The notes below the pieces were generated by a model, which saw only the letters and a list, made by a program, of their open reading frames with translations, did not search any database and was not told where the DNA came from. The position numbers and the translations under genes are program-made. From NCBI RefSeq assembly GCF_054482525.1, contig NZ_CM137006.1: 64,000 bases of DNA, one strand, 5' to 3'. Positions within the stretch are counted from its first letter, which is position 1. Every line of letters begins with the position of its first letter. Below are positions 5,835-51,143 of the stretch, piece by piece.

Positions 5835-6749
5835 ATGAGCTGGATTGAACGAATTAAAAGCAACATTACTCCCACCCGCAAGGCGAGCATTCCTGAAGGG
5901 GTGTGGACTAAGTGTGATAGCTGCGGTCAGGTTTTATACCGCGCTGAGCTGGAACGTAATCTTGAGGTCTGTCCGAAGTGTGACCATCACATGCGTATGA
6001 CAGCGCGTAATCGCCTGCATAGCCTGTTAGATGAAGGAAGCCTTGTGGAGCTGGGTAGCGAGCTTGAGCCGAAAGATGTGCTGAAGTTTCGTGACTCCAA
6101 GAAGTATAAAGACCGTCTGGCATCTGCGCAGAAAGAAACCGGCGAAAAAGATGCGCTGGTGGTGATGAAAGGCACCCTGTATGGAATGCCAGTTGTCGCT
6201 GCGGCATTCGAGTTCGCCTTTATGGGCGGTTCCATGGGGTCTGTGGTAGGTGCACGTTTCGTGCGTGCCGTTGAGCAGGCGCTGGAAGATAACTGCCCAC
6301 TGATCTGCTTCTCCGCCTCTGGTGGCGCACGTATGCAGGAAGCACTGATGTCGCTGATGCAGATGGCGAAAACCTCTGCGGCGCTGGCAAAAATGCAGGA
6401 GCGCGGCTTGCCGTACATCTCCGTGCTGACCGACCCGACCATGGGTGGTGTTTCTGCAAGTTTCGCCATGCTGGGCGATCTCAACATCGCTGAACCGAAA
6501 GCGTTAATCGGCTTTGCCGGTCCGCGTGTTATCGAACAGACCGTTCGCGAAAAACTGCCGCCAGGATTCCAGCGCAGTGAATTCCTGATCGAGAAGGGCG
6601 CGATCGACATGATCGTCCGTCGTCCGGAAATGCGCCTGAAACTGGCGAGTATTCTGGCGAAGTTGATGAATCTGCCAGCGCCGAATCCTGAAGCGCCGCG
6701 TGAAGGCGTAGTGGTGCCACCGGTACCAGATCAGGAACCTGAGGCCTGA
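5835..6749 (+). CDS. accD: Acetyl-CoA carboxylase carboxyltransferase beta subunit
   Basis: 304 aa from ATG 5835 (MSWIERIK...); Zn-finger CxxC..CxxC (CDSCGQ...CPKCDHH); track ORF begins at an upstream in-frame start at 5751 that I did not adopt. Confidence 0.95.
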
Positions 6750-6758
6750 TAACTGATA

Positions 6759-6787
6759 AGGGCAGGGCCACTGGCTCTGCCCTTTTG
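6759..6787 (+). terminator. Intrinsic terminator downstream of accD
   Basis: AGGGCAG-GGCCACTGGCT-CTGCCCT stem-loop followed by TTTTG, 10 nt after the accD stop. Confidence 0.6.
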
Positions 6788-6818
6788 CTATTCTCACCGT
6801 AACGAATCAGCGGATACC

Positions 6819-8087
6819 ATGATTATCAAACGCACTCCTCAAGCCGCGTCGCCTCTGGCTTCGTGGCTTTCTTATCTGGAAAACCTGCACAGTAAAACTA
6901 TCGATCTCGGCCTTGAGCGCGTGAGCCAGGTCGCGGCGCGTCTTGGCATTCTGAAACCAGCGCCATTTGTGTTTACCGTTGCGGGTACGAATGGCAAAGG
7001 CACCACCTGCCGTACGCTGGAGTCGATTCTGATGGCGGCAGGGTACAAAGTGGGCGTCTACAGTTCGCCGCATCTGGTGCGTTATACCGAGCGCGTACGT
7101 GTGCAGGGCCAGGAATTGCCGGAATCGGCCCACACCGCCTCTTTTGCGGAGATTGAATCGGCACGCGGTGATATTTCCCTGACCTATTTCGAGTACGGTA
7201 CGCTGTCGGCGTTGTGGCTGTTCAAACAGGCACAACTTGACGTGGTGATTCTGGAAGTAGGGCTGGGCGGTCGTCTGGACGCAACCAATATTGTCGATGC
7301 CGATGTTGCGGTAGTAACCAGCATTGCGCTGGATCATACCGACTGGCTGGGGCCAGATCGCGAAAGCATTGGTCGCGAGAAAGCAGGCATCTTCCGCAGC
7401 GAAAAACCGGCAATTGTTGGTGAGCCGGAAATGCCTTCTACCATTGCTGATGTGGCGCAGGAAAAAAGTGCACTGTTACAACGTCGGGGCGTTGAGTGGA
7501 ACTATTCCGTCACCGATCATGACTGGGCGTTTAGCGATGCTCACGGCACGCTGGAAAATCTGCCGTTGCCGCTTGTCCCGCAACCGAATGCCGCAACGGC
7601 GCTGGCGGCACTGCGTGCCAGCGGGCTGGAGGTCAGTGAAAATGCCATTCGCGACGGGATTGCCAGCGCAATTTTGCCGGGACGTTTCCAGATTGTGAGC
7701 GAGTCACCACGCGTTATTTTTGATGTCGCGCATAATCCACATGCGGCGGAATATCTCACCGGGCGTATGAAAGCGCTACCGAAAAACGGGCGCGTACTGG
7801 CGGTTATCGGTATGCTACATGATAAAGATATTGCCGGAACTCTGGCCTGGTTGAAAAGCGTGGTTGATGACTGGTATTGTGCGCCACTGGAAGGGCCGCG
7901 CGGTGCCACGGCAGAACAACTGCTTGAGCATTTGGGTAACGGCAAATCATTTGATAGCGTGGCGCAGGCATGGGATGCCGCAATGGCGGACGCTAAAGCG
8001 GAAGATACCGTGCTGGTGTGTGGTTCGTTCCACACGGTCGCACATGTCATGGAAGTGATTGACGCGAGGAGAAGCGGTGGCAAGTAA
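6819..8087 (+). CDS. folC: Bifunctional folylpolyglutamate synthase / dihydrofolate synthase
   Basis: 422 aa; P-loop GTNGKGTT; recognised FolC sequence. Confidence 0.95.
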   Translation: MIIKRTPQAASPLASWLSYLENLHSKTIDLGLERVSQVAARLGILKPAPFVFTVAGTNGKGTTCRTLESILMAAGYKVGVYSSPHLVRYTERVRVQGQELPESAHTASFAEIESARGDISLTYFEYGTLSALWLFKQAQLDVVILEVGLGGRLDATNIVDADVAVVTSIALDHTDWLGPDRESIGREKAGIFRSEKPAIVGEPEMPSTIADVAQEKSALLQRRGVEWNYSVTDHDWAFSDAHGTLENLPLPLVPQPNAATALAALRASGLEVSENAIRDGIASAILPGRFQIVSESPRVIFDVAHNPHAAEYLTGRMKALPKNGRVLAVIGMLHDKDIAGTLAWLKSVVDDWYCAPLEGPRGATAEQLLEHLGNGKSFDSVAQAWDAAMADAKAEDTVLVCGSFHTVAHVMEVIDARRSGGK

Positions 8088-8727
8088 GTTTCAGAATCGG
8101 TTAGTGGGCACGATCGTGCTGGTGGCGCTGGGGGTGATTGTACTTCCAGGGCTGCTGGACGGGCAGAAAAAACATTATCAGGATGAGTTCGCGGCTATCC
8201 CGCTGGTGCCGAAAGCTGGCGATCGCGATGAGCCTGATATGATGCCAGCCGCCACCCAGGCGTTGCCGACGCAGCCGCCGGAAGGCGCAGCGGAAGAGGT
8301 GCGGGCAGGTGATGCCGCAGCACCGTCGCTCGATCCGGCCACTATTGCAGCCAATAACACCGAGTTTGAACCGGAACCTGCACCGGTCGCCCCACCGAAG
8401 CCGAAACCGGTGGAGTCGCCTAAACCGAAGGTTGAAGCACCACCTGCGCCGAAGCCGGTCGTGGAAGAAAAAGCAGCGCCAACGGGTAAAGCCTATGTTG
8501 TACAACTGGGCGCACTGAAAAATGCCGATAAAGTGAATGAGATTGTCGGTAAGCTGCGCGGTGCCGGTTATCGGGTTTATACGTCGCCATCCACGCCAGT
8601 GCAGGGCAAAATTACCCGTATTCTGGTTGGGCCAGATGCCTCGAAAGATAAGCTGAAAGGTTCGCTGGGTGAGTTGAAGCAACTTTCTGGCTTAAGTGGC
8701 GTGGTAATGGGCTATACGCCGAATTAA
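8077..8727 (+). CDS. dedD: Cell division protein DedD (SPOR domain)
   Basis: GTG at 8077 preceded by GGAG at 8067-8070 gives (M)ASKFQNRLVG...; N-terminal TM segment, Pro/Lys/Ala-rich linker, C-terminal SPOR-like domain; overlaps folC 3' end by 11 nt; track ORF starts at upstream TTG 8059. Confidence 0.85.
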   Translation: MASKFQNRLVGTIVLVALGVIVLPGLLDGQKKHYQDEFAAIPLVPKAGDRDEPDMMPAATQALPTQPPEGAAEEVRAGDAAAPSLDPATIAANNTEFEPEPAPVAPPKPKPVESPKPKVEAPPAPKPVVEEKAAPTGKAYVVQLGALKNADKVNEIVGKLRGAGYRVYTSPSTPVQGKITRILVGPDASKDKLKGSLGELKQLSGLSGVVMGYTPN

Positions 8728-8736
8728 TACGGTCTT

Positions 8737-8847
8737 GCCTGATGCGACGCTGGCGCGTCTTATCAGGCCTGCGCAGGGGTAGAGCCGTAGGTCGGATAAG
8801 GCGTTTACGCCGCATCCGACACGCATTGTCCGATGCCGCAAAGGCAT
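8737..8847. repeat. REP / BIME cluster (two full REP palindromes plus a partial third) between dedD and cvpA
   Basis: GCCTGATGCGACGCTGGCGCGTCTTATCAGGC (8737-8768) and GTAGGTCGGATAAGGCGTTTACGCCGCATCCGACACGC (8787-8824) match canonical E. coli REP sequences in opposite orientation. Confidence 0.8.
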
Positions 8848-8985
8848 AAAAAGTCGATGGCGTTGAATATTTTTTCAGCGCCATTTTTATTGATGCGCGG
8901 GAAGGAAATCCCTACGCAAACGTTTTCTTTTTCTGTTAGAATGCGCCCCGAACAGGATGACAGGGCGTAAAATCGTGGGACACAT

Positions 8986-9474
8986 ATGGTCTGGATTGAT
9001 TACGCCATAATCGCGGTGATTGCTTTTTCCTCTCTGGTTAGCCTGATCCGCGGCTTTGTTCGTGAAGCGTTATCGCTGGTGACATGGGGTTGTGCTTTCT
9101 TTGTTGCCAGTCATTACTACACTTACCTGTCAGTCTGGTTTACGGGCTTTGAAGACGAACTGGTTCGAAATGGGATTGCCATCGCGGTACTGTTTATCGC
9201 TACCCTGATCGTTGGTGCTATCGTGAACTTCGTGATAGGCCAGTTGGTGGAGAAAACGGGGTTGTCAGGCACCGATCGGGTGCTGGGCGTCTGTTTCGGT
9301 GCGTTGCGCGGTGTGTTGATTGTTGCCGCCATTCTCTTCTTTCTCGACTCCTTTACCGGGGTGTCGAAAAGCGAAGACTGGAGCAAATCACAGCTGATCC
9401 CGCAGTTCAGTTTTATCATCAGATGGTTTTTTGATTATCTGCAAAGCTCGTCAAGTTTCTTGCCCAGAGCGTAA
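8986..9474 (+). CDS. cvpA: Colicin V production membrane protein CvpA
   Basis: 162 aa multi-TM ORF immediately upstream of purF (cvpA-purF-ubiX arrangement). Confidence 0.9.
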   Translation: MVWIDYAIIAVIAFSSLVSLIRGFVREALSLVTWGCAFFVASHYYTYLSVWFTGFEDELVRNGIAIAVLFIATLIVGAIVNFVIGQLVEKTGLSGTDRVLGVCFGALRGVLIVAAILFFLDSFTGVSKSEDWSKSQLIPQFSFIIRWFFDYLQSSSSFLPRA

Positions 9475-16208: not shown

Positions 16209-17099
16209 ATGACAATATCGACAACTTCCACGCCGCATGATGCGGTATTTAAATCTTTTTTACGCCATCCAGACACCGCGCGGGATTTTATTGATATTCA
16301 TCTTCCCGCGCCGCTGCGCAAACTGTGTGATTTAACAACGCTTAAACTGGAACCAAACAGTTTTATTGATGAAGACCTGCGGCAATATTATTCCGACCTC
16401 TTGTGGTCTGTGAAAACGCAGGAGGGAGCGGGTTATATTTATGTAGTGATAGAGCACCAAAGTAAGCCGGAAGAATTAATGGCTTTTCGCATGATGCGCT
16501 ATTCCATTGCGGCGATGCAAAACCATCTTGATGCAGGCTATAAAGAGCTTCCATTGGTGATCCCGATGCTGTTTTATCATGGTTGCAGAAGTCCTTATCC
16601 TTATTCACTCTGCTGGCTTGATGAATTTGCCGAGCCTGCGATTGCCCGCAAAATTTATTCATCGGCTTTTCCGCTGGTGGATATTACCGTGGTGCCGGAT
16701 GACGAGATTATGCAACATCGCAAAATGGCGCTGTTGGAGTTAATTCAGAAACATATTCGTCAGCGCGATCTGTTGGGATTAGTCGACCAAATTGTTTCGC
16801 TGCTAGTTACAGGGAACACTAATGACAGACAGCTAAAAGCCCTGTTTAATTACGTATTACAAACGGGGGATGCCCAGCGTTTCCGTGCATTTATTGGTGA
16901 GATAGCGGAACGCGCACCACAAGAAAAGGAGAAACTGATGACCATTGCTGACAGATTACGTGAAGAAGGCGCAATGCAGGGCAAACACGAAGAAGCTCTG
17001 CGTATTGCTCAGGAGATGCTGGAAAAAGGATTTGACCACGAAGTCATCCTGACGCTGACCCGACTTTCACCAGACGATCTTATCGCGCAAAGCCACTAA
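16209..17099 (+). CDS. rpnB: Recombination-promoting nuclease RpnB (YfcI; Rpn/YhgA-like, transposase_31 / PD-(D/E)XK family)
   Basis: 296 aa; [18 protein letters not shown]... typical N-terminus of the Rpn family; K-12 position between hisP and yfcH. Confidence 0.85.
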
Positions 17100-43844: not shown

Positions 43845-44399
43845 ATGGAGTTCGCTTTTTATATCTGTGGCCTGATAGCCATACTTGCGACCTTGCGAGT
43901 GATCACCCATACCAATCCGGTACACGCACTGCTGTACCTGATTATTTCGCTGCTGGCGATCTCAGGGGTGTTCTTCTCACTGGGCGCTTACTTTGCCGGT
44001 GCGCTGGAAATTATCGTCTACGCGGGTGCCATTATGGTGCTGTTCGTGTTCGTGGTGATGATGCTCAACCTGGGCGGTTCAGAAATTGAACAGGAACGCC
44101 AGTGGCTGAAACCGCAGGTGTGGATTGGTCCGGCGATTTTGTCGGCCATCATGCTGGTGGTGATTGTTTACGCCATCCTTGGTGTTAATGATCAGGGTAT
44201 CGACGGTACGCCAATCAGTGCTAAAGCAGTGGGTATTACGCTGTTCGGGCCTTACGTACTGGCGGTGGAACTGGCTTCTATGCTGCTGCTCGCGGGTCTG
44301 GTTGTGGCCTTCCACGTTGGTCGTGAAGAGCGAGCGGGTGAAGTGCTGAGCAATCGTAAAGACGACAGCGCGAAAAGAAAAACGGAGGAGCACGCATGA
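43845..44399 (+). CDS. nuoJ: NADH:quinone oxidoreductase subunit J
   Basis: 184 aa membrane protein. Confidence 0.95.
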
Positions 44400-44698
44400 T
44401 CCCCTTACAACATGGACTGATCCTCGCGGCAATCTTATTCGTTCTTGGCTTAACTGGTCTGGTTATCCGTCGCAATCTGCTGTTTATGCTGATTGGTCTG
44501 GAAATCATGATTAACGCCTCTGCGCTGGCCTTTGTGGTCGCCGGAAGCTACTGGGGCCAGACCGACGGTCAGGTGATGTATATTCTCGCCATCAGCCTCG
44601 CGGCGGCAGAAGCGAGTATCGGCCTAGCGCTGCTGCTGCAACTTCACCGTCGTCGCCAGAACCTGAACATCGATTCAGTAAGTGAGATGCGCGGATGA
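44396..44698 (+). CDS. nuoK: NADH:quinone oxidoreductase subunit K
   Basis: 100 aa, three TM helices; ATGA overlaps with nuoJ and nuoL. Confidence 0.95.
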
Positions 44699-46536
44699 AC
44701 ATGCTTGCCTTAACCATTATTTTGCCATTGATTGGCTTTGTCCTGCTGGCGTTCTCCCGTGGGCGCTGGTCTGAAAACGTCTCGGCGATCGTTGGCGTTG
44801 GCTCTGTAGGCCTGGCGGCACTGGTAACTGCCTTTATTGGCGTCGACTTCTTCGCTAACGGCGAGCAGGCATACAGCCAGCCGCTGTGGACATGGATGTC
44901 GGTAGGCGACTTTAACATCGGTTTTAACCTGGTGCTGGACGGCCTGTCGCTGACCATGCTCTCGGTGGTCACTGGTGTGGGTTTCCTTATTCACATGTAC
45001 GCCTCCTGGTATATGCGCGGTGAAGAGGGCTACTCTCGCTTCTTCGCTTACACCAACCTGTTCATCGCCAGCATGGTAGTTCTGGTGCTTGCCGACAACC
45101 TGCTGCTGATGTACCTCGGCTGGGAAGGCGTGGGCCTGTGCTCCTATCTGCTGATCGGTTTCTATTACACCGATCCGAAGAATGGCGCAGCGGCAATGAA
45201 AGCGTTCGTCGTGACCCGTGTGGGTGACGTCTTCCTCGCTTTCGCGCTGTTCATTCTTTACAACGAACTGGGCACCCTGAACTTCCGCGAAATGGTGGAA
45301 CTGGCACCAGCGCACTTTGCTGACGGCAATAACATGCTGATGTGGGCGACGCTGATGCTGCTGGGCGGTGCGGTCGGTAAATCTGCGCAGTTGCCGTTGC
45401 AGACATGGCTTGCCGACGCGATGGCGGGCCCGACGCCTGTCTCCGCGCTGATCCACGCCGCAACGATGGTAACCGCGGGTGTCTACCTGATCGCCCGTAC
45501 CCACGGCCTGTTCCTGATGACGCCGGAAGTTCTGCATCTGGTGGGCATTGTTGGGGCGGTTACGCTGCTGCTGGCCGGTTTTGCGGCGCTGGTACAGACC
45601 GACATCAAACGTGTTCTCGCTTACTCTACCATGAGCCAGATTGGCTACATGTTCCTCGCGCTTGGCGTACAGGCATGGGATGCGGCGATTTTCCACTTGA
45701 TGACTCACGCGTTCTTTAAAGCGCTGCTGTTCCTGGCATCCGGTTCCGTCATTCTGGCCTGCCATCACGAACAGAACATCTTCAAGATGGGCGGTCTGCG
45801 TAAATCTATTCCGCTGGTTTATCTCTGCTTCCTGGTGGGCGGCGCAGCACTGTCGGCACTGCCGCTGGTCACTGCGGGCTTCTTCAGTAAGGATGAGATC
45901 CTCGCGGGTGCGATGGCGAATGGTCATATCAATCTGATGGTGGCTGGTCTGGTCGGTGCGTTTATGACCTCGCTCTACACCTTCCGTATGATTTTCATCG
46001 TCTTCCACGGAAAAGAACAAATTCACGCTCACGCCGTGAAAGGGGTAACTCACAGCCTGCCGCTGATTGTGCTGCTGATCCTTTCCACCTTCGTTGGCGC
46101 ACTGATTGTACCGCCGCTGCAGGGCGTGCTTCCGCAAACGACGGAGCTGGCGCACGGCAGCATGTTGACCCTGGAAATTACCTCTGGTGTGGTCGCGGTG
46201 GTCGGCATTCTGCTGGCAGCCTGGCTGTGGCTGGGTAAACGTACTCTGGTGACCTCCATCGCCAACAGTGCGCCGGGCCGTCTGCTGGGCACCTGGTGGT
46301 ACAACGCCTGGGGCTTTGACTGGCTGTACGACAAAGTGTTCGTCAAGCCGTTCCTGGGTGTTGCCTGGTTGCTGAAACGCGATCCGCTGAACTCAATGAT
46401 GAACATCCCGGCTGTCCTTTCCCGCTTTGCAGGTAAAGGTCTGCTGTTAAGCGAGAACGGTTATCTGCGCTGGTATGTGGCATCCATGAGCATCGGTGCG
46501 GTCGTGGTGCTGGCACTGTTGATGGTACTGCGTTGA
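44695..46536 (+). CDS. nuoL: NADH:quinone oxidoreductase subunit L (antiporter-like)
   Basis: 613 aa polytopic membrane protein. Confidence 0.95.
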
Positions 46537-46556
46537 GTTGTTGGCTGAGTGAATAT

Positions 46557-46575
46557 ACCCGGCGTTGCGCCGGGT
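46557..46575 (+). other. GC-rich tri-loop hairpin in the nuoL-nuoM intercistronic spacer
   Basis: ACCCGGCG-TTG-CGCCGGGT, 8-bp stem, 21 nt after the nuoL stop; no U-tract. Confidence 0.5.
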
Positions 46576-46766
46576 CTGTGAACTAAGAATAAATTTTAGG
46601 TAACTGTTCCTGAAGTACAGGCGTCATCGGCGAAGTCAGACCGGATACCGCCAGCGCACAGCAACCGGAGCGTACTTAAGTACGTGAGGATTGCGAGCAC
46701 TGCCGGGATTCGGGCTGGCGAGTGAGATAGCCTGAGCAGGAGTAAATATAAGGGACATACTTAGCT

Positions 46767-48296
46767 ATGTTATTACCCTGGTTAATACTAATCCCCTTTA
46801 TCGGCGGCTTCCTGTGCTGGCAGACCGAACGCTTTGGCGTCAAGGTGCCGCGCTGGATCGCGCTGATCACCATGGGATTGACGCTGGCGCTGTCGCTGCA
46901 ACTGTGGTTGCAGGGCGGTTATTCACTGACGCAATCCGCCGGAATTCCGCAGTGGCAGTCTGAATTCGACATGCCGTGGATCCCGCGTTTTGGTATCTCT
47001 ATCCATCTCGCCATTGACGGGCTATCGCTGCTGATGGTCGTGCTGACCGGTCTGCTCGGTGTGCTGGCGGTACTCTGTTCGTGGAAAGAGATCGAAAAAT
47101 ATCAGGGCTTCTTCCACCTCAACCTGATGTGGATCCTGGGCGGCGTTATCGGCGTGTTCCTTGCCATCGACATGTTCCTGTTCTTCTTCTTCTGGGAAAT
47201 GATGCTGGTGCCGATGTACTTCCTGATCGCACTGTGGGGGCATAAAGCCTCTGACGGTAAAACGCGTATCACGGCGGCAACCAAGTTCTTCATTTACACC
47301 CAGGCGAGTGGTCTGGTGATGTTGATCGCCATCCTGGCGCTGGTTTTTGTTCACTACAATGCGACTGGCGTCTGGACCTTCAACTATGAAGAGCTGCTGA
47401 ATACGCCAATGTCTAACGGCGTGGAATATTTGCTGATGCTGGGCTTCTTCATCGCGTTTGCGGTGAAAATGCCGGTGGTACCGCTGCATGGCTGGCTGCC
47501 GGATGCGCACTCACAGGCTCCGACCGCCGGTTCCGTGGACCTCGCGGGGATCTTGCTGAAAACCGCCGCTTACGGTCTGCTGCGTTTCTCCCTGCCGCTG
47601 TTCCCGAACGCGTCGGCAGAGTTCGCGCCAATCGCTATGTGGCTGGGTGTTATCGGCATCTTCTACGGTGCGTGGATGGCCTTCGCCCAGACCGATATCA
47701 AACGTCTGATCGCCTACACCTCGGTTTCCCACATGGGCTTCGTGCTGATTGCTATCTATACCGGCAGCCAGTTGGCCTACCAGGGCGCGGTAATCCAGAT
47801 GATTGCGCACGGCTTGTCGGCGGCGGGTCTGTTTATTCTCTGCGGTCAGCTTTATGAACGTATCCATACCCGCGACATGCGCATGATGGGCGGTCTGTGG
47901 AGCAAGATGAAATGGCTGCCAGCACTGTCACTGTTCTTTGCGGTGGCAACGCTTGGGATGCCTGGCACCGGTAACTTCGTCGGCGAATTTATGATTCTGT
48001 TCGGCAGCTTCCAGGTTGTCCCGGTGATTACCGTTATCTCTACCTTTGGGCTGGTCTTTGCATCTGTTTATTCGCTGGCGATGTTGCATCGCGCTTACTT
48101 CGGTAAAGCGAAAAGCCAGATTGCCAGCCAGGAACTGCCAGGGATGTCGCTGCGTGAGCTGTTTATGATCCTGTTGCTGGTGGTGCTGCTGGTACTGCTG
48201 GGCTTCTATCCGCAGCCGATTCTGGATACCTCGCATTCCGCGATTGGCAATATCCAGCAGTGGTTTGTTAATTCCGTTACTACTACAAGGCCGTAA
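46767..48296 (+). CDS. nuoM: NADH:quinone oxidoreductase subunit M (antiporter-like)
   Basis: 509 aa; follows a 230-nt spacer after nuoL. Confidence 0.95.
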   Translation: MLLPWLILIPFIGGFLCWQTERFGVKVPRWIALITMGLTLALSLQLWLQGGYSLTQSAGIPQWQSEFDMPWIPRFGISIHLAIDGLSLLMVVLTGLLGVLAVLCSWKEIEKYQGFFHLNLMWILGGVIGVFLAIDMFLFFFFWEMMLVPMYFLIALWGHKASDGKTRITAATKFFIYTQASGLVMLIAILALVFVHYNATGVWTFNYEELLNTPMSNGVEYLLMLGFFIAFAVKMPVVPLHGWLPDAHSQAPTAGSVDLAGILLKTAAYGLLRFSLPLFPNASAEFAPIAMWLGVIGIFYGAWMAFAQTDIKRLIAYTSVSHMGFVLIAIYTGSQLAYQGAVIQMIAHGLSAAGLFILCGQLYERIHTRDMRMMGGLWSKMKWLPALSLFFAVATLGMPGTGNFVGEFMILFGSFQVVPVITVISTFGLVFASVYSLAMLHRAYFGKAKSQIASQELPGMSLRELFMILLLVVLLVLLGFYPQPILDTSHSAIGNIQQWFVNSVTTTRP

Positions 48297-48302
48297 ATCG
48301 CC

Positions 48303-49760
48303 ATGACAATAACTCCACAAAACCTGATCGCACTGCTACCGTTGCTGATCGTCGGCTTGACGGTGGTGGTTGTGATGCTCTCCATTGCGTGGCGACGCAA
48401 TCATTTCCTCAACGCTACGCTCTCGGTTATTGGGCTTAACGCGGCGCTGGTTTCGCTCTGGTTTGTCGGCCAGGCGGGCGCTATGGACGTTACGCCACTG
48501 ATGCGCGTTGATGGTTTCGCCATGCTTTACACCGGGCTGGTATTGTTGGCGAGCCTCGCCACCTGTACTTTCGCCTACCCGTGGCTTGAAGGCTATAACG
48601 ACAACAAGGACGAGTTCTACCTGTTGGTGTTAATTGCCGCGCTGGGCGGGATCCTGCTGGCGAATGCCAACCATCTGGCGTCTCTGTTCCTCGGTATCGA
48701 ACTGATCTCTTTGCCGCTGTTTGGCCTGGTCGGTTACGCTTTCCGCCAGAAACGTTCGCTGGAAGCCAGTATCAAATACACCATTCTCTCTGCCGCAGCG
48801 TCTTCTTTCCTGCTGTTTGGTATGGCGCTGGTGTATGCGCAGTCTGGCGACCTGTCGTTTGTCGCGCTGGGTAAAAACCTCGGCGACGGTATGCTCAACG
48901 AGCCGCTGTTGCTGGCAGGTTTCGGACTGATGATTGTTGGCCTCGGCTTCAAACTCTCTCTGGTGCCGTTCCACCTCTGGACGCCAGACGTATACCAGGG
49001 CGCGCCTGCGCCGGTTTCCACTTTCCTGGCGACGGCGAGCAAAATCGCTATCTTCGGTGTGGTGATGCGTCTGTTCCTCTACGCACCGGTGGGTGACAGC
49101 GAAGCGATTCGCGTGGTGCTGGCGATTATCGCCTTTGCCTCCATCATCTTCGGTAACCTGATGGCGCTGAGCCAGACCAATATCAAACGTCTGCTCGGTT
49201 ACTCATCTATCTCTCACCTCGGCTATCTGCTGGTGGCGCTGATTGCGCTGCAAACTGGCGAGATGTCGATGGAAGCGGTAGGGGTTTACCTGGCCGGTTA
49301 TCTGTTCAGCAGCCTAGGCGCGTTCGGCGTGGTCAGCCTGATGTCCAGCCCGTATCGTGGCCCGGATGCTGATTCCCTGTTCTCTTACCGCGGTCTGTTC
49401 TGGCATCGTCCGATCCTCGCGGCGGTGATGACGGTGATGATGCTGTCTCTGGCCGGTATCCCGATGACGCTGGGCTTTATCGGTAAGTTCTACGTGCTGG
49501 CGGTCGGTGTCCAGGCACACCTGTGGTGGCTGGTGGGTGCCGTGGTTGTCGGTTCGGCAATCGGCCTCTACTACTACCTGCGCGTGGCGGTGAGCCTGTA
49601 TCTTCACGCCCCGGAACAACCGGGTCGCGATGCACCATCAAACTGGCAGTACAGCGCGGGCGGTATCGTGGTGCTGATCTCTGCACTGTTGGTACTGGTG
49701 CTGGGTGTATGGCCACAACCGCTGATTAGCATTGTGCGGTTAGCCATGCCGCTGATGTAA
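48303..49760 (+). CDS. nuoN: NADH:quinone oxidoreductase subunit N (antiporter-like)
   Basis: 485 aa; last gene of operon, followed by an intrinsic terminator. Confidence 0.95.
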
Positions 49761-49783
49761 GCTGTCAGTTCGTAAGTCAGAAA

Positions 49784-49811
49784 GCCGCCGACATGTTCGG
49801 CGGTTTTTTTT
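49784..49811 (+). terminator. Intrinsic terminator of the nuo operon
   Basis: CCGCCGA-CATGT-TCGGCGG followed by T8 (49804-49811), 25 nt after the nuoN stop. Confidence 0.8.
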
Positions 49812-50523
49812 GTGCACAGAAAACCCCCAGCTAGGCTGGGGGTTCCGGAAAGCTTTCAGCTTTAAGCCAGTTATTAAAACCCCTTTTGATTTGTTAAAAC
49901 ACCTTGCGGTCTGGCAACTGCAAGTGTCAAACAAGAAATCAAAAGGGGGTCCCAATGGGGAACGAAAAGAGCTTAGCGCACACCCGATGGAACTGTAAAT
50001 ATCACATAGTTTTTGCGCCAAAATACCGAAGACAGGTGTTCTACAGAGAGAAGCGTAGAGCAATAGGCAGTATTTTGAGAAAGCTGTGTGAGTGGAAAAG
50101 TGTACGGATTCTGGAAGCTGAATGCTGTGCAGATCATATCCATATGCTTGTGGAGATCCCGCCCAAAATGAGCGTATCCGGCTTTATGGGATATCTGAAA
50201 GGGAAAAGCAGTCTGATGCTTTACGAGCAGTTTGGTGATTTGAAATTCAAATACAGGAACAGGGAGTTCTGGTGCAGAGGGTACTACGTCGATACGGTGG
50301 GTAAGAACACGGCGAAGATACAGGATTACATAAAGCACCAGCTTGAAGAGGATAAAATGGGAGAGCAGTTATCGATTCCCTATCCGGGCAGCCCGTTTAC
50401 GGGCCGTAAGTAACGAAGTTGGATGCAAATGTCAGATCGTGTGCGCCTGTTAGGGCGCGGCTGGTAAGAGAGCCTTATAGGCGCATTTGAAAAACCTCCG
50501 GCTATGCCGGAGGATATTTATTG
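49812..50523 (+). mobile_element. IS200-like insertion sequence (IS200/IS605 family), about 0.7 kb; boundaries approximate (+/- 15 bp)
   Basis: Single 152-aa TnpA ORF of the HUH/Y1 type; subterminal hairpins at both ends (49824-49842 CCCCCAGC-TAG-GCTGGGGG; 50495-50513 CCTCCGG-CTATG-CCGGAGG); no terminal inverted repeats, as expected for this family; size matches IS200. Confidence 0.75.
49955..50413 (+). CDS. tnpA: IS200 transposase TnpA (HUH single-strand DNA transposase)
   Basis: 152 aa from ATG 49955 (MGNEKSLAHTRWNCKYHIVFAPKYRR...); HuH motif in ADHIHMLVEIPP; conserved Tyr in the C-terminal part; track ORF begins at an upstream in-frame start at 49904. Confidence 0.9.
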   Translation: MGNEKSLAHTRWNCKYHIVFAPKYRRQVFYREKRRAIGSILRKLCEWKSVRILEAECCADHIHMLVEIPPKMSVSGFMGYLKGKSSLMLYEQFGDLKFKYRNREFWCRGYYVDTVGKNTAKIQDYIKHQLEEDKMGEQLSIPYPGSPFTGRK

Positions 50524-50537
50524 GTGCCCTGACCCCA

Positions 50538-51041
50538 TCACCCAACAATAACCGTCAGCGCATGATTCCCTTGTCGCAGCATACGTCGATACGCACTAAT
50601 CAGCTTTTCCATATCAAGCATGATCGAAGCAAAGAGTTGCCCCTCTAACTCTTCTGAAAAAGTCACACCAGGGTAAATCTCCATTTCATTGAGTCGTTTA
50701 ATGGAAAACTGTTTACGCAGCTCACTTCGATCCAGAGCTTCCAGTCGGTCGATTGTCGCGGCTAACTCCTGATTCCAGGTCAATCCCAGGAAGCCATCTA
50801 TGCCATCTTCGAGGTTGTGTTCACCAAGCACGGCACGACTCAGCGGATCATTCTTCGCGGGATCAAAAGCAGAGGTGCCTGTCAGGCCAAAATGTAAAAA
50901 ATCCCAGCGTTTATCAATATCCAGTCGGTGTAATCCTGAAAGCGTGTCATGAATATTGTCCATTAAGGGTTTTTCAGTAGACTCAAGCAGTTGGTTAATC
51001 TTTTCTGAGTCAATTTCTGCAAAATAGCCAATCATTCCCAT
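50538..51041 (-). CDS. yfbM: Uncharacterised protein YfbM (DUF1877)
   Basis: 167 aa; recognised YfbM sequence (MGMIGYFAEIDSEKINQLLE...). Confidence 0.88.
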   Translation of the reverse strand: MGMIGYFAEIDSEKINQLLESTEKPLMDNIHDTLSGLHRLDIDKRWDFLHFGLTGTSAFDPAKNDPLSRAVLGEHNLEDGIDGFLGLTWNQELAATIDRLEALDRSELRKQFSIKRLNEMEIYPGVTFSEELEGQLFASIMLDMEKLISAYRRMLRQGNHALTVIVG

Positions 51042-51143
51042 TTTATTTTCCTCCGTTGAATTTCATGTTTCGCATCTTAAAACAGACGAGGGAAAATAAA
51101 ATGTACATGTCGCTTTTTCTGGACTCGCCTCGAGAAATTTTTA

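Follow-up and report, generated by a model that had tools for sequence, protein, structure and literature searches.

IS200 of Salmonella and its relatives in the IS200/IS605 family are the closest described systems for the locus considered here. In IS200, the left-end hairpin (nt 12-34) acts at the RNA level as a bidirectional terminator and protects tnpA against transcripts entering from outside, and a further stem-loop (nt 69-138) lies in the tnpA 5′UTR (Ellis et al. 2015, PMC4513863); both have equivalents at this locus. In S. Typhi, the RNA StyR-24 starts 4 nt after the tnpA ORF (PMC2943607). For IS608, target recognition by a guide has been described (PMC5027513). A 2025 preprint reported a family-level statistical association with terminators (10.1101/2025.07.22.666184), and an explicit account of IS200 or IS1541 targeting host terminators was not found in the searchable literature, where an earlier description is possible.

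The whole stretch of DNA analysed (64,000 nt, hereafter the window) contains a complete 711-bp insertion sequence downstream of nuoN, with which the nuo operon ends (Table 1). The element is very probably IS200C, of the IS200 group, a known, intact and ordinary insertion sequence; this assignment by sequence takes its name from the PGAP annotation of 100%-identical copies. The 712-bp stretch delimited in the initial annotation (49812-50523) is 100% identical to IS200C copies annotated in many E. coli genomes and has a match in 3,096 of 5,426 complete E. coli genomes. The only ORF of the 711-bp element with a family match is tnpA, and tnpB is absent. TnpA matched Pfam Y1_Tnp (PF01797; 3.8e-38) and NCBIfam transpos_IS200 (NF033573; 1.9e-43, 147.7 bits with a cut-off of 55), and structure-sequence matches were obtained with PDB 2ec2 (4e-23), 2f4f (8e-20), the IS608 TnpA 2a6m (4e-19) and 2xm3 (2e-16). 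Alignment to solved structures, in which DHIHMLV and YIKHQ of TnpA align with DHIHLFV and YIEEQ of 2ec2 and 2f4f, revealed the HUH motif as H61-I-H63 (codons 50135-50137 and 50141-50143) and the catalytic Tyr as Y125 (50327-50329) in a Tyr/Gln helix Y125...Q129. The initial annotation had called a complete IS200/IS605-family element with an HUH transposase; the Pfam and NCBIfam matches and the identity to annotated IS200C bear out the first point, and the presence of both the HUH and the catalytic Tyr motifs on alignment with solved family transposases bears out the second. The element DNA is also 100% identical to the copy in VCSW5, where tnpA is annotated as WP_000526135.1, and the copy in the window is complete and apparently functional.

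Table 1. Features of the IS200C insertion and its host site (positions in the window).
Feature	Position	Strand	Description
nuoN, last nuo operon gene	48303-49760	+	485-aa ORF; NCBIfam NuoN equivalog 1.2e-285
nuoN intrinsic terminator	49781-49811	+	stem GCCGCCGA (49784-49791) / TCGGCGG (49797-49803), loop CATGT
IS200C	49812-50522	+	complete, 711 bp; tnpA-sense top strand on the window plus strand
Putative left guide, A-rich	49817-49821	+	5′ of left hairpin foot, CAGAAAA
Left subterminal hairpin	49822-49844	+	AACCCCCAGC-TAG-GCTGGGGGTT; 10-bp perfect stem, 100% complementary
Rfam RF01405 (STnc490) match	49822-49945	+	left hairpin and tnpA 5′UTR stem-loop
Putative art200	49874-49963 (approximate)	-	by homology with the art200 description in PMC4513863
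tnpA 5′UTR stem-loop	49880-49948	+	inverted repeat of 16 nt, 94% complementary
tnpA	49955-50413	+	ORF, 152 aa, Y1 HUH transposase
Internal stem-loop, tnpA 3′UTR	50442-50485	+	inverted repeat
Right end	50490-50522	+	A-run 50490-50494, hairpin 50495-50513, tail 50514-50522
Right subterminal hairpin	50495-50513	+	CCTCCGGC-TAT-GCCGGAGG; 8-bp stem
Host spacer	50523-50537	.	GGTGCCCTGACCCCA; between IS200C and yfbM stop; identical in empty sites
yfbM (DUF1877), convergent, intact	50538-51041	-	167-aa ORF; Pfam DUF1877 1.5e-35

The ends of the element were set by comparing copies at other sites and the empty sites of two near-identical genomes. The empty-site comparison, in which exactly 711 bp are added, leaves a junction ambiguity of 3 nt (TTG), and the multi-copy comparison places the right end at 50522, one base short of the end first annotated, whereas the left end given there stands. 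G50523 is a host base, the first of GGTGCCC; the trailing G was ruled out both as a target base and as the final base of IS200C, and the single G is assigned to the element start. The base after the right end is G in all six E. coli copies examined first and any base in Y. pestis copies; other insertions at the nuoN site have T there, and a tandem junction contains only one G. On the left, the host T8 tract occupies 49804-49811 and IS200C starts at the next base, so that the adjacency to T8 initially described holds, with a gap of 0 bp in place of 1-12 bp. On the right, the predicted distance of about 15 bp to the yfbM stop codon (50538-50540) was measured as 15 nt. When the first 40 nt are set against the reverse complement of the last 40, 11 of 40 positions match, which is about chance and fits the claimed lack of terminal inverted repeats, and the subterminal hairpins claimed for both ends fold stably as DNA (left, -11.7 kcal/mol, z -3.6; right, -10.0 kcal/mol, z -5.0). 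These two hairpins are homologous, lie on the same strand in the same orientation and differ by two compensatory pair changes.

The left hairpin is presumed to be the TnpA binding site, and the RNA of its minus strand folds with -20.7 kcal/mol and is followed by UUUUCUGUG. The GAAAA in front of it is invariant in all related elements collected, and AAAA also precedes the right hairpin. By analogy with IS608, the putative A-rich left guide would pair with a T-tract target; a search for guide/target covariation yielded no guide variants, as every collected element shares GAAAA. The Rfam match to RF01405 covers the full-length model with 146.1 bits (gathering score 56; E 2.9e-31), and the tnpA 5′UTR stem-loop within it folds as RNA with -40 kcal/mol (z -4.2). 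At the other end, the segment 50436-50522 folds with -20.8 kcal/mol (z -4.4), and its internal stem-loop falls within the StyR-24 region. The right hairpin is terminator-like on both strands in a terminator scan, and the 9-nt T-rich tail ATATTTATT ends at the right cleavage point.

The nuoN terminator served as the insertion target and was left intact; it is unchanged in SCU-102 and PCN033, where the site is empty, and folds with -18.7 kcal/mol (z -4.3) as RNA and -10.8 kcal/mol (z -4.9) as DNA. A simple terminator scan reported neither this terminator nor the left-end hairpin, whereas folding revealed both to be strong; the scan probably missed them because its stems were extended into the T and A runs. 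Weak Rfam matches to ryfA (17.5 bits) and AaHKsRNA41 (16.8 bits) and a minus-strand STnc490 fragment (22.8 bits), all far below gathering scores, were dismissed as chance. The weak matches overlie the two terminator hairpins. nuoN, the host terminator and yfbM (a name also annotated in related genomes) are all undamaged, and the effect on the host should be nearly neutral, with nuo termination untouched. The end hairpins of IS200C would insulate tnpA from outside transcription, and yfbM has probably acquired a new terminator in the right-end hairpin, which is followed by UUUUU on the minus strand. For the window itself, the insertion, as a neutral copy of a well-known IS, matters little.

Three near-identical genomes, SCU-102, PCN033 and 19KM1776, are essentially 100% identical to the window over 1-44000 and 56001-64000 (in SCU-102, as single unbroken alignments), and all three are shorter by exactly 711 bp at the nuoN-yfbM site. 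Over 44000-56000, SCU-102 and PCN033 equal the window minus exactly 711 bp (11,290 bp), with zero other differences. The alignment of IS-free junctions proposed in the initial annotation therefore defined the empty site in these nearest relatives as TCGGCGG-T8/GGTGCCC (the slash marks the insertion point), and revealed that IS200C was inserted without target duplication and without loss of host bases. Since these 711 bp are all that separates both genomes from the window here, the insertion was precise and probably recent, a dating by sequence comparison; as IS200 is notoriously immobile in the laboratory (PMC4513863), "recent" is meant in this comparative sense only. A query that included 200 nt of the IS matched 10 places in SCU-102, 11 in PCN033 and 8 in 19KM1776; the extra places are probably for the most part IS200 left ends, so that donor copies were likely present in the lineage. 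An old insertion, lost from all three relatives by precise excision, is improbable. The family does excise precisely and restores the empty site (PMC5027513), and an IS occupies the same site in other lineages, but the relatives are all 711 bp shorter, the two compared carry zero other differences over 11.3 kb, the IS of the window is 100% identical to many copies elsewhere, and a single gain is more parsimonious than losing an element of very low activity (PMC4513863) one to three times.

IS at the nuoN-yfbM junction was found in about 100 of the 5,426 complete E. coli genomes. In seven filled genomes examined, the IS is 95.9% to 100% identical to the window copy, the flanks are 97.5-99.8% identical, and four TnpA alleles are annotated; the insertion point varies, with T7 or T8 before the element and 0-3 extra T after it. 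As both the isoforms and the T-tract positions differ between filled genomes, this comparison of sequences indicates that the nuoN terminator was used repeatedly and independently by related elements in other E. coli lineages. One ancient insertion common to the filled genomes was ruled out, because, among the seven examined, the isoforms differ by up to 4% and the flanks by 0.2-2.5% and the insertion points vary, and because the nearest relatives are empty. The filled genomes, some of which carry 100% identical copies (e.g., VCSW5 and Ec42), could also have supplied the filled allele to this strain by homologous recombination instead of local transposition. Such an import is highly improbable: the flanks of the examined filled alleles differ from the window by 0.2-2.5%, VCSW5 differs within about 30-70 nt upstream of the IS, and on either side the window is identical to the empty-site relatives as far as the junction itself, so that the imported tract would have to stop no more than a few tens of bases to the left of the element. 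IS200C at the nuoN terminator is useful as a strain marker against the near-identical PCN033, SCU-102 and 19KM1776, and offers a rare natural case in which a very recent IS200 transposition can be set beside an empty site in an isogenic background. The non-K-12 lineage initially suggested agrees with the MG1655 record, in which the flanks alone were matched and no place was found for IS200; the junction is occupied in K-12 by a yfbN-yfbO-yfbP island. That IS200C is the sole mobile element of the window likewise held, as the rest is essentially 100% identical to SCU-102, where only core genes are annotated, from yfcJ through nuo and men to arnT. In that annotation, rpnB, a domesticated nuclease, is the only transposase-related gene over the rest of the window range.

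The choice of site was surveyed at 114 distinct IS200-type insertion sites from Enterobacterales, Vibrio, Desulfovibrionaceae, Bacillota, Enterococcus and others. A perfect hairpin with a T tail ending at the junction was found at 93 of the 114 sites (82%), or at 106 (93%) when one mismatch was allowed; a hairpin by the survey criterion was absent at eight. The independent E. coli copies all (6/6) follow a GC hairpin and a T run. In controls, the hairpin criterion was reached by 0.6% of random positions, 6.8% of TTTT/G positions and 8% of intergenic runs of at least four T, the last being a crude control based on a six-frame ORF mask (T runs outside long ORFs). The distance from the hairpin foot to the left end clusters at 6-9 nt, inside the T tract. 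T directly precedes the left end at 101 of the 114 sites and occupies positions -2, -4 and -5 at 96-107. The conserved short target therefore adjoins the left end in a strand-specific manner, and the right flank is variable. At 77% of sites, an ORF on the same strand ends upstream, at a median of 60 nt. In tandem copies, the right end of an element can itself serve as the target. Insertion beside hairpins, as initially noted, was thus correct and even understated, given the preference for hairpin-plus-T-tract terminators at 82-93% of sites, and the survey suggests that IS200-type elements choose terminators with near-nucleotide precision.

The terminator pattern itself is well supported; that the hairpin is read mechanistically is less certain. 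It may tentatively be proposed that IS200-type elements (IS200, IS1541 and relatives sharing the left hairpin, in several phyla) are dedicated intrinsic-terminator homing elements. If so, each strong terminator would be a reusable landing pad, which would account for both the repeated independent hits at nuoN and the tandem copies. Alternatively, terminators are not chosen at all: any accessible T run is entered, and only harmless, transcriptionally quiet copies survive selection. A preference for T runs alone follows from the guide/target pairing of the family, adjacent duplex DNA gave no boost to IS608 integration in vitro (PMC5027513), terminators are the commonest harmless T runs, and the preprint reads the association as persistence where transposase expression is limited (10.1101/2025.07.22.666184). 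The hairpin preference at the 114 sites may also reflect post-insertion selection for harmless, insulated sites. Selection as the whole explanation is rather unlikely, since 8% of T runs outside long ORFs compare with 82-93% of insertion sites (a comparison with a crude control), the insertion point falls in a narrow range, 6-9 nt away from the foot of the hairpin, and in many cases within the T run and not at its end, and the copy in the window is very young yet already lies at a terminator.

Transposition may be pictured on the model of IS608 and ISDra2. A TnpA dimer would bind both subterminal hairpins on the top strand, which would be excised as a single-stranded circle (peel and paste) and pasted into single-stranded DNA at the replication fork, on the 3′ side of a short target. 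Tandem head-to-tail copies are compatible with the single-stranded circle route, without being proof of it. Target recognition would fall to the A-rich bases just before the left hairpin, which here would pair with the T tract; to judge from the 114 related sites, the preferred target would be a GC hairpin followed by a T tract, i.e., an intrinsic terminator, with integration at 6-9 nt on the 3′ side of the hairpin foot. Such an arrangement resembles the right end of the element itself, with its hairpin and 9-nt T-rich tail. Such a preference would account for the location in the window and for the reuse of the nuoN terminator elsewhere. GC skew is positive along the whole window plus strand, and the IS200C top strand, on this G-rich strand, would be the lagging-strand template. 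Across the survey, the IS top strand has positive GC skew at 77 of 92 sites (p = 3e-11), a bias that gene co-orientation with replication would also give. If mechanistic, the terminator preference would explain how the elements persist at high copy number with almost no host damage, make the landing places of new copies predictable, and extend the target-recognition rules of IS608 to a structure-dependent target.

Compared with known systems, the element shows no difference from the E. coli isoform IS200C, its TnpA being identical to WP_000526135.1; only the location is particular to this strain, as the closest relatives are empty. Salmonella enterica IS200, the type element (PMC4513863), shares the layout, with the hairpin at about nt 11-33, the SD-hiding 5′UTR stem-loop at about nt 69-137, a single tnpA and an art200/STnc490 region (146 bits here); it is another isoform, of 707 bp versus 711 bp, and art200 is putative here, by sequence. 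IS1541 of Yersinia pestis is 87.5% identical over its full length and shares the end sequences GTGCnCAG...ATATTTATT; like the copy in the window, those of IS1541 follow hairpin-plus-T-tract sites, and tandem copies occur. It differs in its species, its much higher copy number and a sequence divergence of 12.5%. IS608 of Helicobacter pylori and ISDra2 share the homologous Y1 HUH transposase, subterminal hairpins, the lack of inverted repeats and of target duplication, and a short target on whose 3′ side they insert; a bias to the lagging-strand template may also be common to them. In contrast to IS200C, they carry tnpB and use a tetra- or pentanucleotide target (TTAC, TTGAT), for which a need for a neighbouring hairpin is unreported; in IS200C, a T tract at 6-9 nt from a GC hairpin serves as the target, and the mechanism of IS200 is drawn by analogy. 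RAYT (TnpA-REP) proteins have a related Y1 HUH fold and act on extragenic hairpins, and TnpA matched NCBIfam REP_Tyr_transpos weakly (32 bits; cut-off 80). RAYT is a domesticated single-copy gene flanked by REPs, whereas the TnpA of IS200C is a bona fide transposase inside a mobile element. Group IIC introns are retroelements that home to intrinsic terminators (PMC7923331); the resemblance lies in target choice only, as these introns use an RNA ribozyme and a reverse transcriptase, and IS200C uses a single-stranded-DNA HUH transposase.

The element between nuoN and yfbM, described in the initial annotation as IS200-like and encoding a 152-aa HUH transposase, was identified as a copy of IS200C. 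The transposase matches Pfam Y1_Tnp (3.8e-38) and the NCBIfam equivalog transpos_IS200 (147.7 bits; cut-off 55), and aligns over nearly its full length with solved IS200/IS605-family transposases from Sulfolobus (2ec2, 4e-23; 2f4f, 8e-20), IS608 (TnpA, 2a6m, 4e-19) and ISDra2 (2xm3, 2e-16). In these alignments, DHIHMLV pairs with DHIHLFV and YIKHQ with YIEEQ, which assigns the HUH motif to H61/H63 and the catalytic tyrosine to Y125, with Q129. Copies with 100% identity to the 712-bp stretch originally delimited occur in many complete E. coli genomes and are labelled by NCBI as "IS200/IS605-like element IS200C family transposase"; 3,096 of 5,426 genomes contain a match, at up to 35 places each. 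The element is an already known isoform, and the nuoN-yfbM locus is ordinary.

Features of the IS200C copy and its surroundings (window positions)
Feature	Position	Strand	Remarks
rpnB	~16209-17099	+	recombination-promoting nuclease
nuoN	48303-49760		upstream flank of element
nuoN terminator stem	49784-49791 paired with 49797-49803		RNA fold -18.7 kcal/mol
T8 of nuoN terminator	49804-49811		directly abuts element
IS200C element	49812-50522		711 bp; one ORF
Left hairpin	49822-49844		perfect 10-bp stem, 3-nt loop; DNA fold -11.7 kcal/mol, z -3.6
Rfam RF01405 (STnc490)	49822-49945	+	full-length model match, 146 bits
5'UTR stem-loop	49880-49948		RNA fold -40 kcal/mol, z -4.2
Shine-Dalgarno bases	49943-49949		
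Transposase ORF	49955-50413	+	152 aa
Right-end inner stem-loop	50442-50485		
Right-end hairpin	50495-50513		8-bp stem
Right-end tail	9 nt after right hairpin		ATATTTATT
yfbM (DUF1877)			convergent, downstream of element
elaD	~52505-53729	-	deubiquitinase

The exact ends were defined by near-identical E. coli genomes lacking the insertion. Window 1-44000 and 56001-64000 are essentially 100% identical to SCU-102, PCN033 and 19KM1776 in single unbroken alignments, and by coordinates the segment between the aligned blocks is 711 bp shorter in all three. Base-by-base comparison with SCU-102 and PCN033 revealed that their segment equals window 44000-56000 minus 711 bp, with zero other differences over 11,290 bp and neither target duplication nor deletion relative to these empty sites. 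The empty site reads ...GCCGCCGACATGTTCGGCGG-TTTTTTTT/GGTGCCCTGACC, with the T8 tract as the target. TTG is common to both junctions, leaving a 3-nt ambiguity; since copies elsewhere begin with G after a T run of varying length and end in ...ATATTTATT followed by any base, the element ends at 50522 and G50523 is host DNA. The left end in the initial annotation (49812-50523) therefore stands and the right end is corrected by 1 nt; adjacency to the T8 tract also holds, with the element beginning at the very next base rather than about 1-12 bp away, and the predicted distance of about 15 bp to the yfbM stop codon corresponds to a 15-nt host spacer. For a query that took in 200 nt from the left end of the IS, the three relatives have 8-11 matching places, most of the extra ones probably being other IS200 copies, and recent transposition inside an IS200-bearing lineage is the simplest reading.

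The feature positions agree to about 1 base with the Salmonella IS200 map, which places a terminator inverted repeat at nt 12-34 and the 5'UTR stem-loop at nt 69-138, with the RNA art200 antisense to the 5'UTR (PMC4513863). As proposed, hairpins are subterminal at both ends and terminal inverted repeats are absent from the element (its ends match at 11/40 positions). Homology links the left and right hairpins on the same strand (AAAACCnCCnGCTAnGCnGGnGG); two base pairs have changed in a compensatory manner, and each hairpin has an A run on its 5' side. A terminator scan found the right-end hairpin terminator-like on the + and - strands. The Shine-Dalgarno bases are paired within the 5'UTR stem-loop in the RNA fold. 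The STnc490 match, comprising the left hairpin and 5'UTR, lies in sense to tnpA; as STnc490/art200 is given as antisense to the tnpA 5'UTR by Ellis et al. 2015 (PMC4513863), the Rfam model may represent a 5'UTR-derived RNA rather than art200. The stretch just past the tnpA stop, 50418-50519 (+), which contains the inner stem-loop and right hairpin, matches the position of StyR-24, an RNA of 102 nt that was cloned from S. Typhi and starts 4 nt past the IS200 ORF (PMC2943607); it could give rise to an RNA derived from the element's 3'UTR.

The nuoN terminator has been used repeatedly. IS200 occupies the nuoN-yfbM junction in 100 of 5,426 genomes, counted where one place accounts for 80% or more of the junction-spanning query, so that about 100 RefSeq genomes already have this insertion in annotated form. 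Seven filled genomes were compared with the window. In VCSW5 and Ec42, the IS is 100% identical to the window copy and the flanks differ by 0.6-1.4%; in 19KM1831 (a neighbour strain of 19KM1776), HCP5S3_I2 and 28Eco12, the IS is 95.9-96.9% and the flanks are 97.5-99.3% identical. Four annotated TnpA alleles occur among the genomes compared, with a left run of T7 or T8 and 0-3 extra T after the element. This variation, together with the empty nearest relatives, indicates at least three independent insertions, and gene-conversion replacement of the IS could lie behind some isoform differences. Ec42 and Ec-U14-1 are 100% identical over 1.5 kb on either side of the IS; their IS copies are four substitutions apart and have different T counts at both junctions (T7/+2T vs T8/+0T), which suggests that at this terminator an IS was excised and re-inserted, or was converted by another copy. 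In the K-12 MG1655 record, a 1.7-kb query spanning the site found only two places; the one listed is nuoN and the other presumably the yfbM flank, leaving no IS200 match, in keeping with the non-K-12 lineage inferred initially. There, yfbP-yfbO-yfbN lie between nuoN and yfbM as an island of ~2.5 kb exactly at the junction (window 49804-50537; MG1655 locus 6441-9100). Homology stops after T5 of the terminator T tract and restarts ~20 nt short of the yfbM stop codon, so the bases behind the nuoN terminator are an indel hot spot beyond IS200.

The initial annotation also noted a family tendency to insert beside hairpins, and this extends well beyond nuoN. Six of six independent IS200C copies in other E. 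coli contexts lie directly after a GC hairpin and T run. A left-hairpin motif scan of one genome per species yielded 114 distinct insertion sites, covering Y. pestis IS1541, Vibrio, Edwardsiella, Tatumella, Dickeya, Brenneria, Mailhella/Desulfovibrio, Oxalobacter, Enterococcus, and Bacillota and Ruminococcus MAGs. A hairpin-plus-T-tail precedes 88 (77%) by the first, stricter criterion, 93 (82%) with G/C-closed stems and loops to 10 nt, and 106 (93%) with one stem mismatch allowed, compared with 0.6% of random positions, 6.8% of TTTT/G positions and 8% of T runs of at least 4 outside long ORFs. For 81 of the 93 perfect cases, the insertion point is 6-9 nt from the last G:C pair, a spacing similar to the 9 nt that separate the element's right hairpin from its end. 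Because the target hairpins all differ and the nuoN hairpin pre-exists in the empty site, these are host terminators and not element parts; a same-strand ORF ends a median 60 nt upstream at 77% of sites, against 40% in a crude control. Head-to-tail tandems of IS200 in E. coli YDC107 (locus 151-1012) and IS1541 in Y. pestis NCTC5923 have the junction ...ATATTTATT/GTGC..., one copy having landed precisely at another's right end, so that this end can itself serve as target, which fits its hairpin and T-rich tail resembling the preferred target. The 23-nt left hairpin is exactly conserved in elements of Bacillota, Enterococcus, Desulfovibrionaceae (Mailhella), Oxalobacter and Vibrio, and also in Saccharibacteria and Elusimicrobia MAGs, while the 8 nt at the adjoining element tip vary between groups. 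The distance from many motif matches to a contig end is ~90-120 nt, a pattern typical of multi-copy repeats breaking assemblies. This strong, phylum-spanning terminator-plus-ruler pattern and the isogenic empty site documenting a very recent insertion are the most interesting by-products of the analysis.

Insertion is precise and strand-specific, 3' of the T tract behind a hairpin and without duplication. By analogy with IS608 and ISDra2, a TnpA dimer would bind both hairpins, GAAAA 5' of the left hairpin foot, invariant in all variants, would pair with the target T's, and AAAAA 5' of the right hairpin would pair with the right cleavage site TTATT. We hypothesize that the terminator hairpin is part of what the element recognises: it could imitate the right end, or it could leave the T tract accessible where duplex and single strand meet. 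The chief alternative is that selection after insertion retains copies in harmless, insulated sites, a reading favoured by the finding that IS608 integration is not stimulated by a neighbouring duplex (PMC5027513); the sites' 10-fold enrichment relative to intergenic T runs and the narrow hairpin-to-insertion spacing speak against selection alone, though it may still suffice. GC skew is positive on the + strand across the whole window, suggesting that the element's top strand belongs to the lagging-strand template, an orientation predicted by the family mechanism (PMC5027513).

At the insertion site, nuoN, its terminator and yfbM remain intact. Read on the minus strand, the right-end hairpin runs into UUUUUCAAAU, and yfbM transcripts now probably end at this hairpin and no longer at the old bidirectional terminator. 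The IS is, as claimed, the only mobile element in the window: the collinear SCU-102 annotation, which runs from yfcJ via nuo and men to arnT, contains nothing but core genes, and the left-hairpin motif occurs once. The only other transposase-related gene, rpnB, belongs to the transposase-like Rpn/YhgA family and is a core gene that has been domesticated, not a mobile element. Separately, the annotations of SCU-102 and PCN033, both of which match the window at every base across elaD, list this gene as a frameshifted pseudogene; it is intact in some other lineages, e.g., A287 and CE0007a. Overall, the initial observation is confirmed with the 1-nt correction and its interpretation is supported.

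No explicit account of IS200/IS1541 integration at a fixed distance past host terminator hairpins was found in the literature covered, several older key papers lying outside that coverage. A 2025 preprint reads the terminator association of the family as limiting transposase expression; the reference it gives in support deals with the terminator inside the element (10.1101/2025.07.22.666184). Among known systems, group IIC introns make the same target choice as IS200-type elements by an unrelated mechanism.
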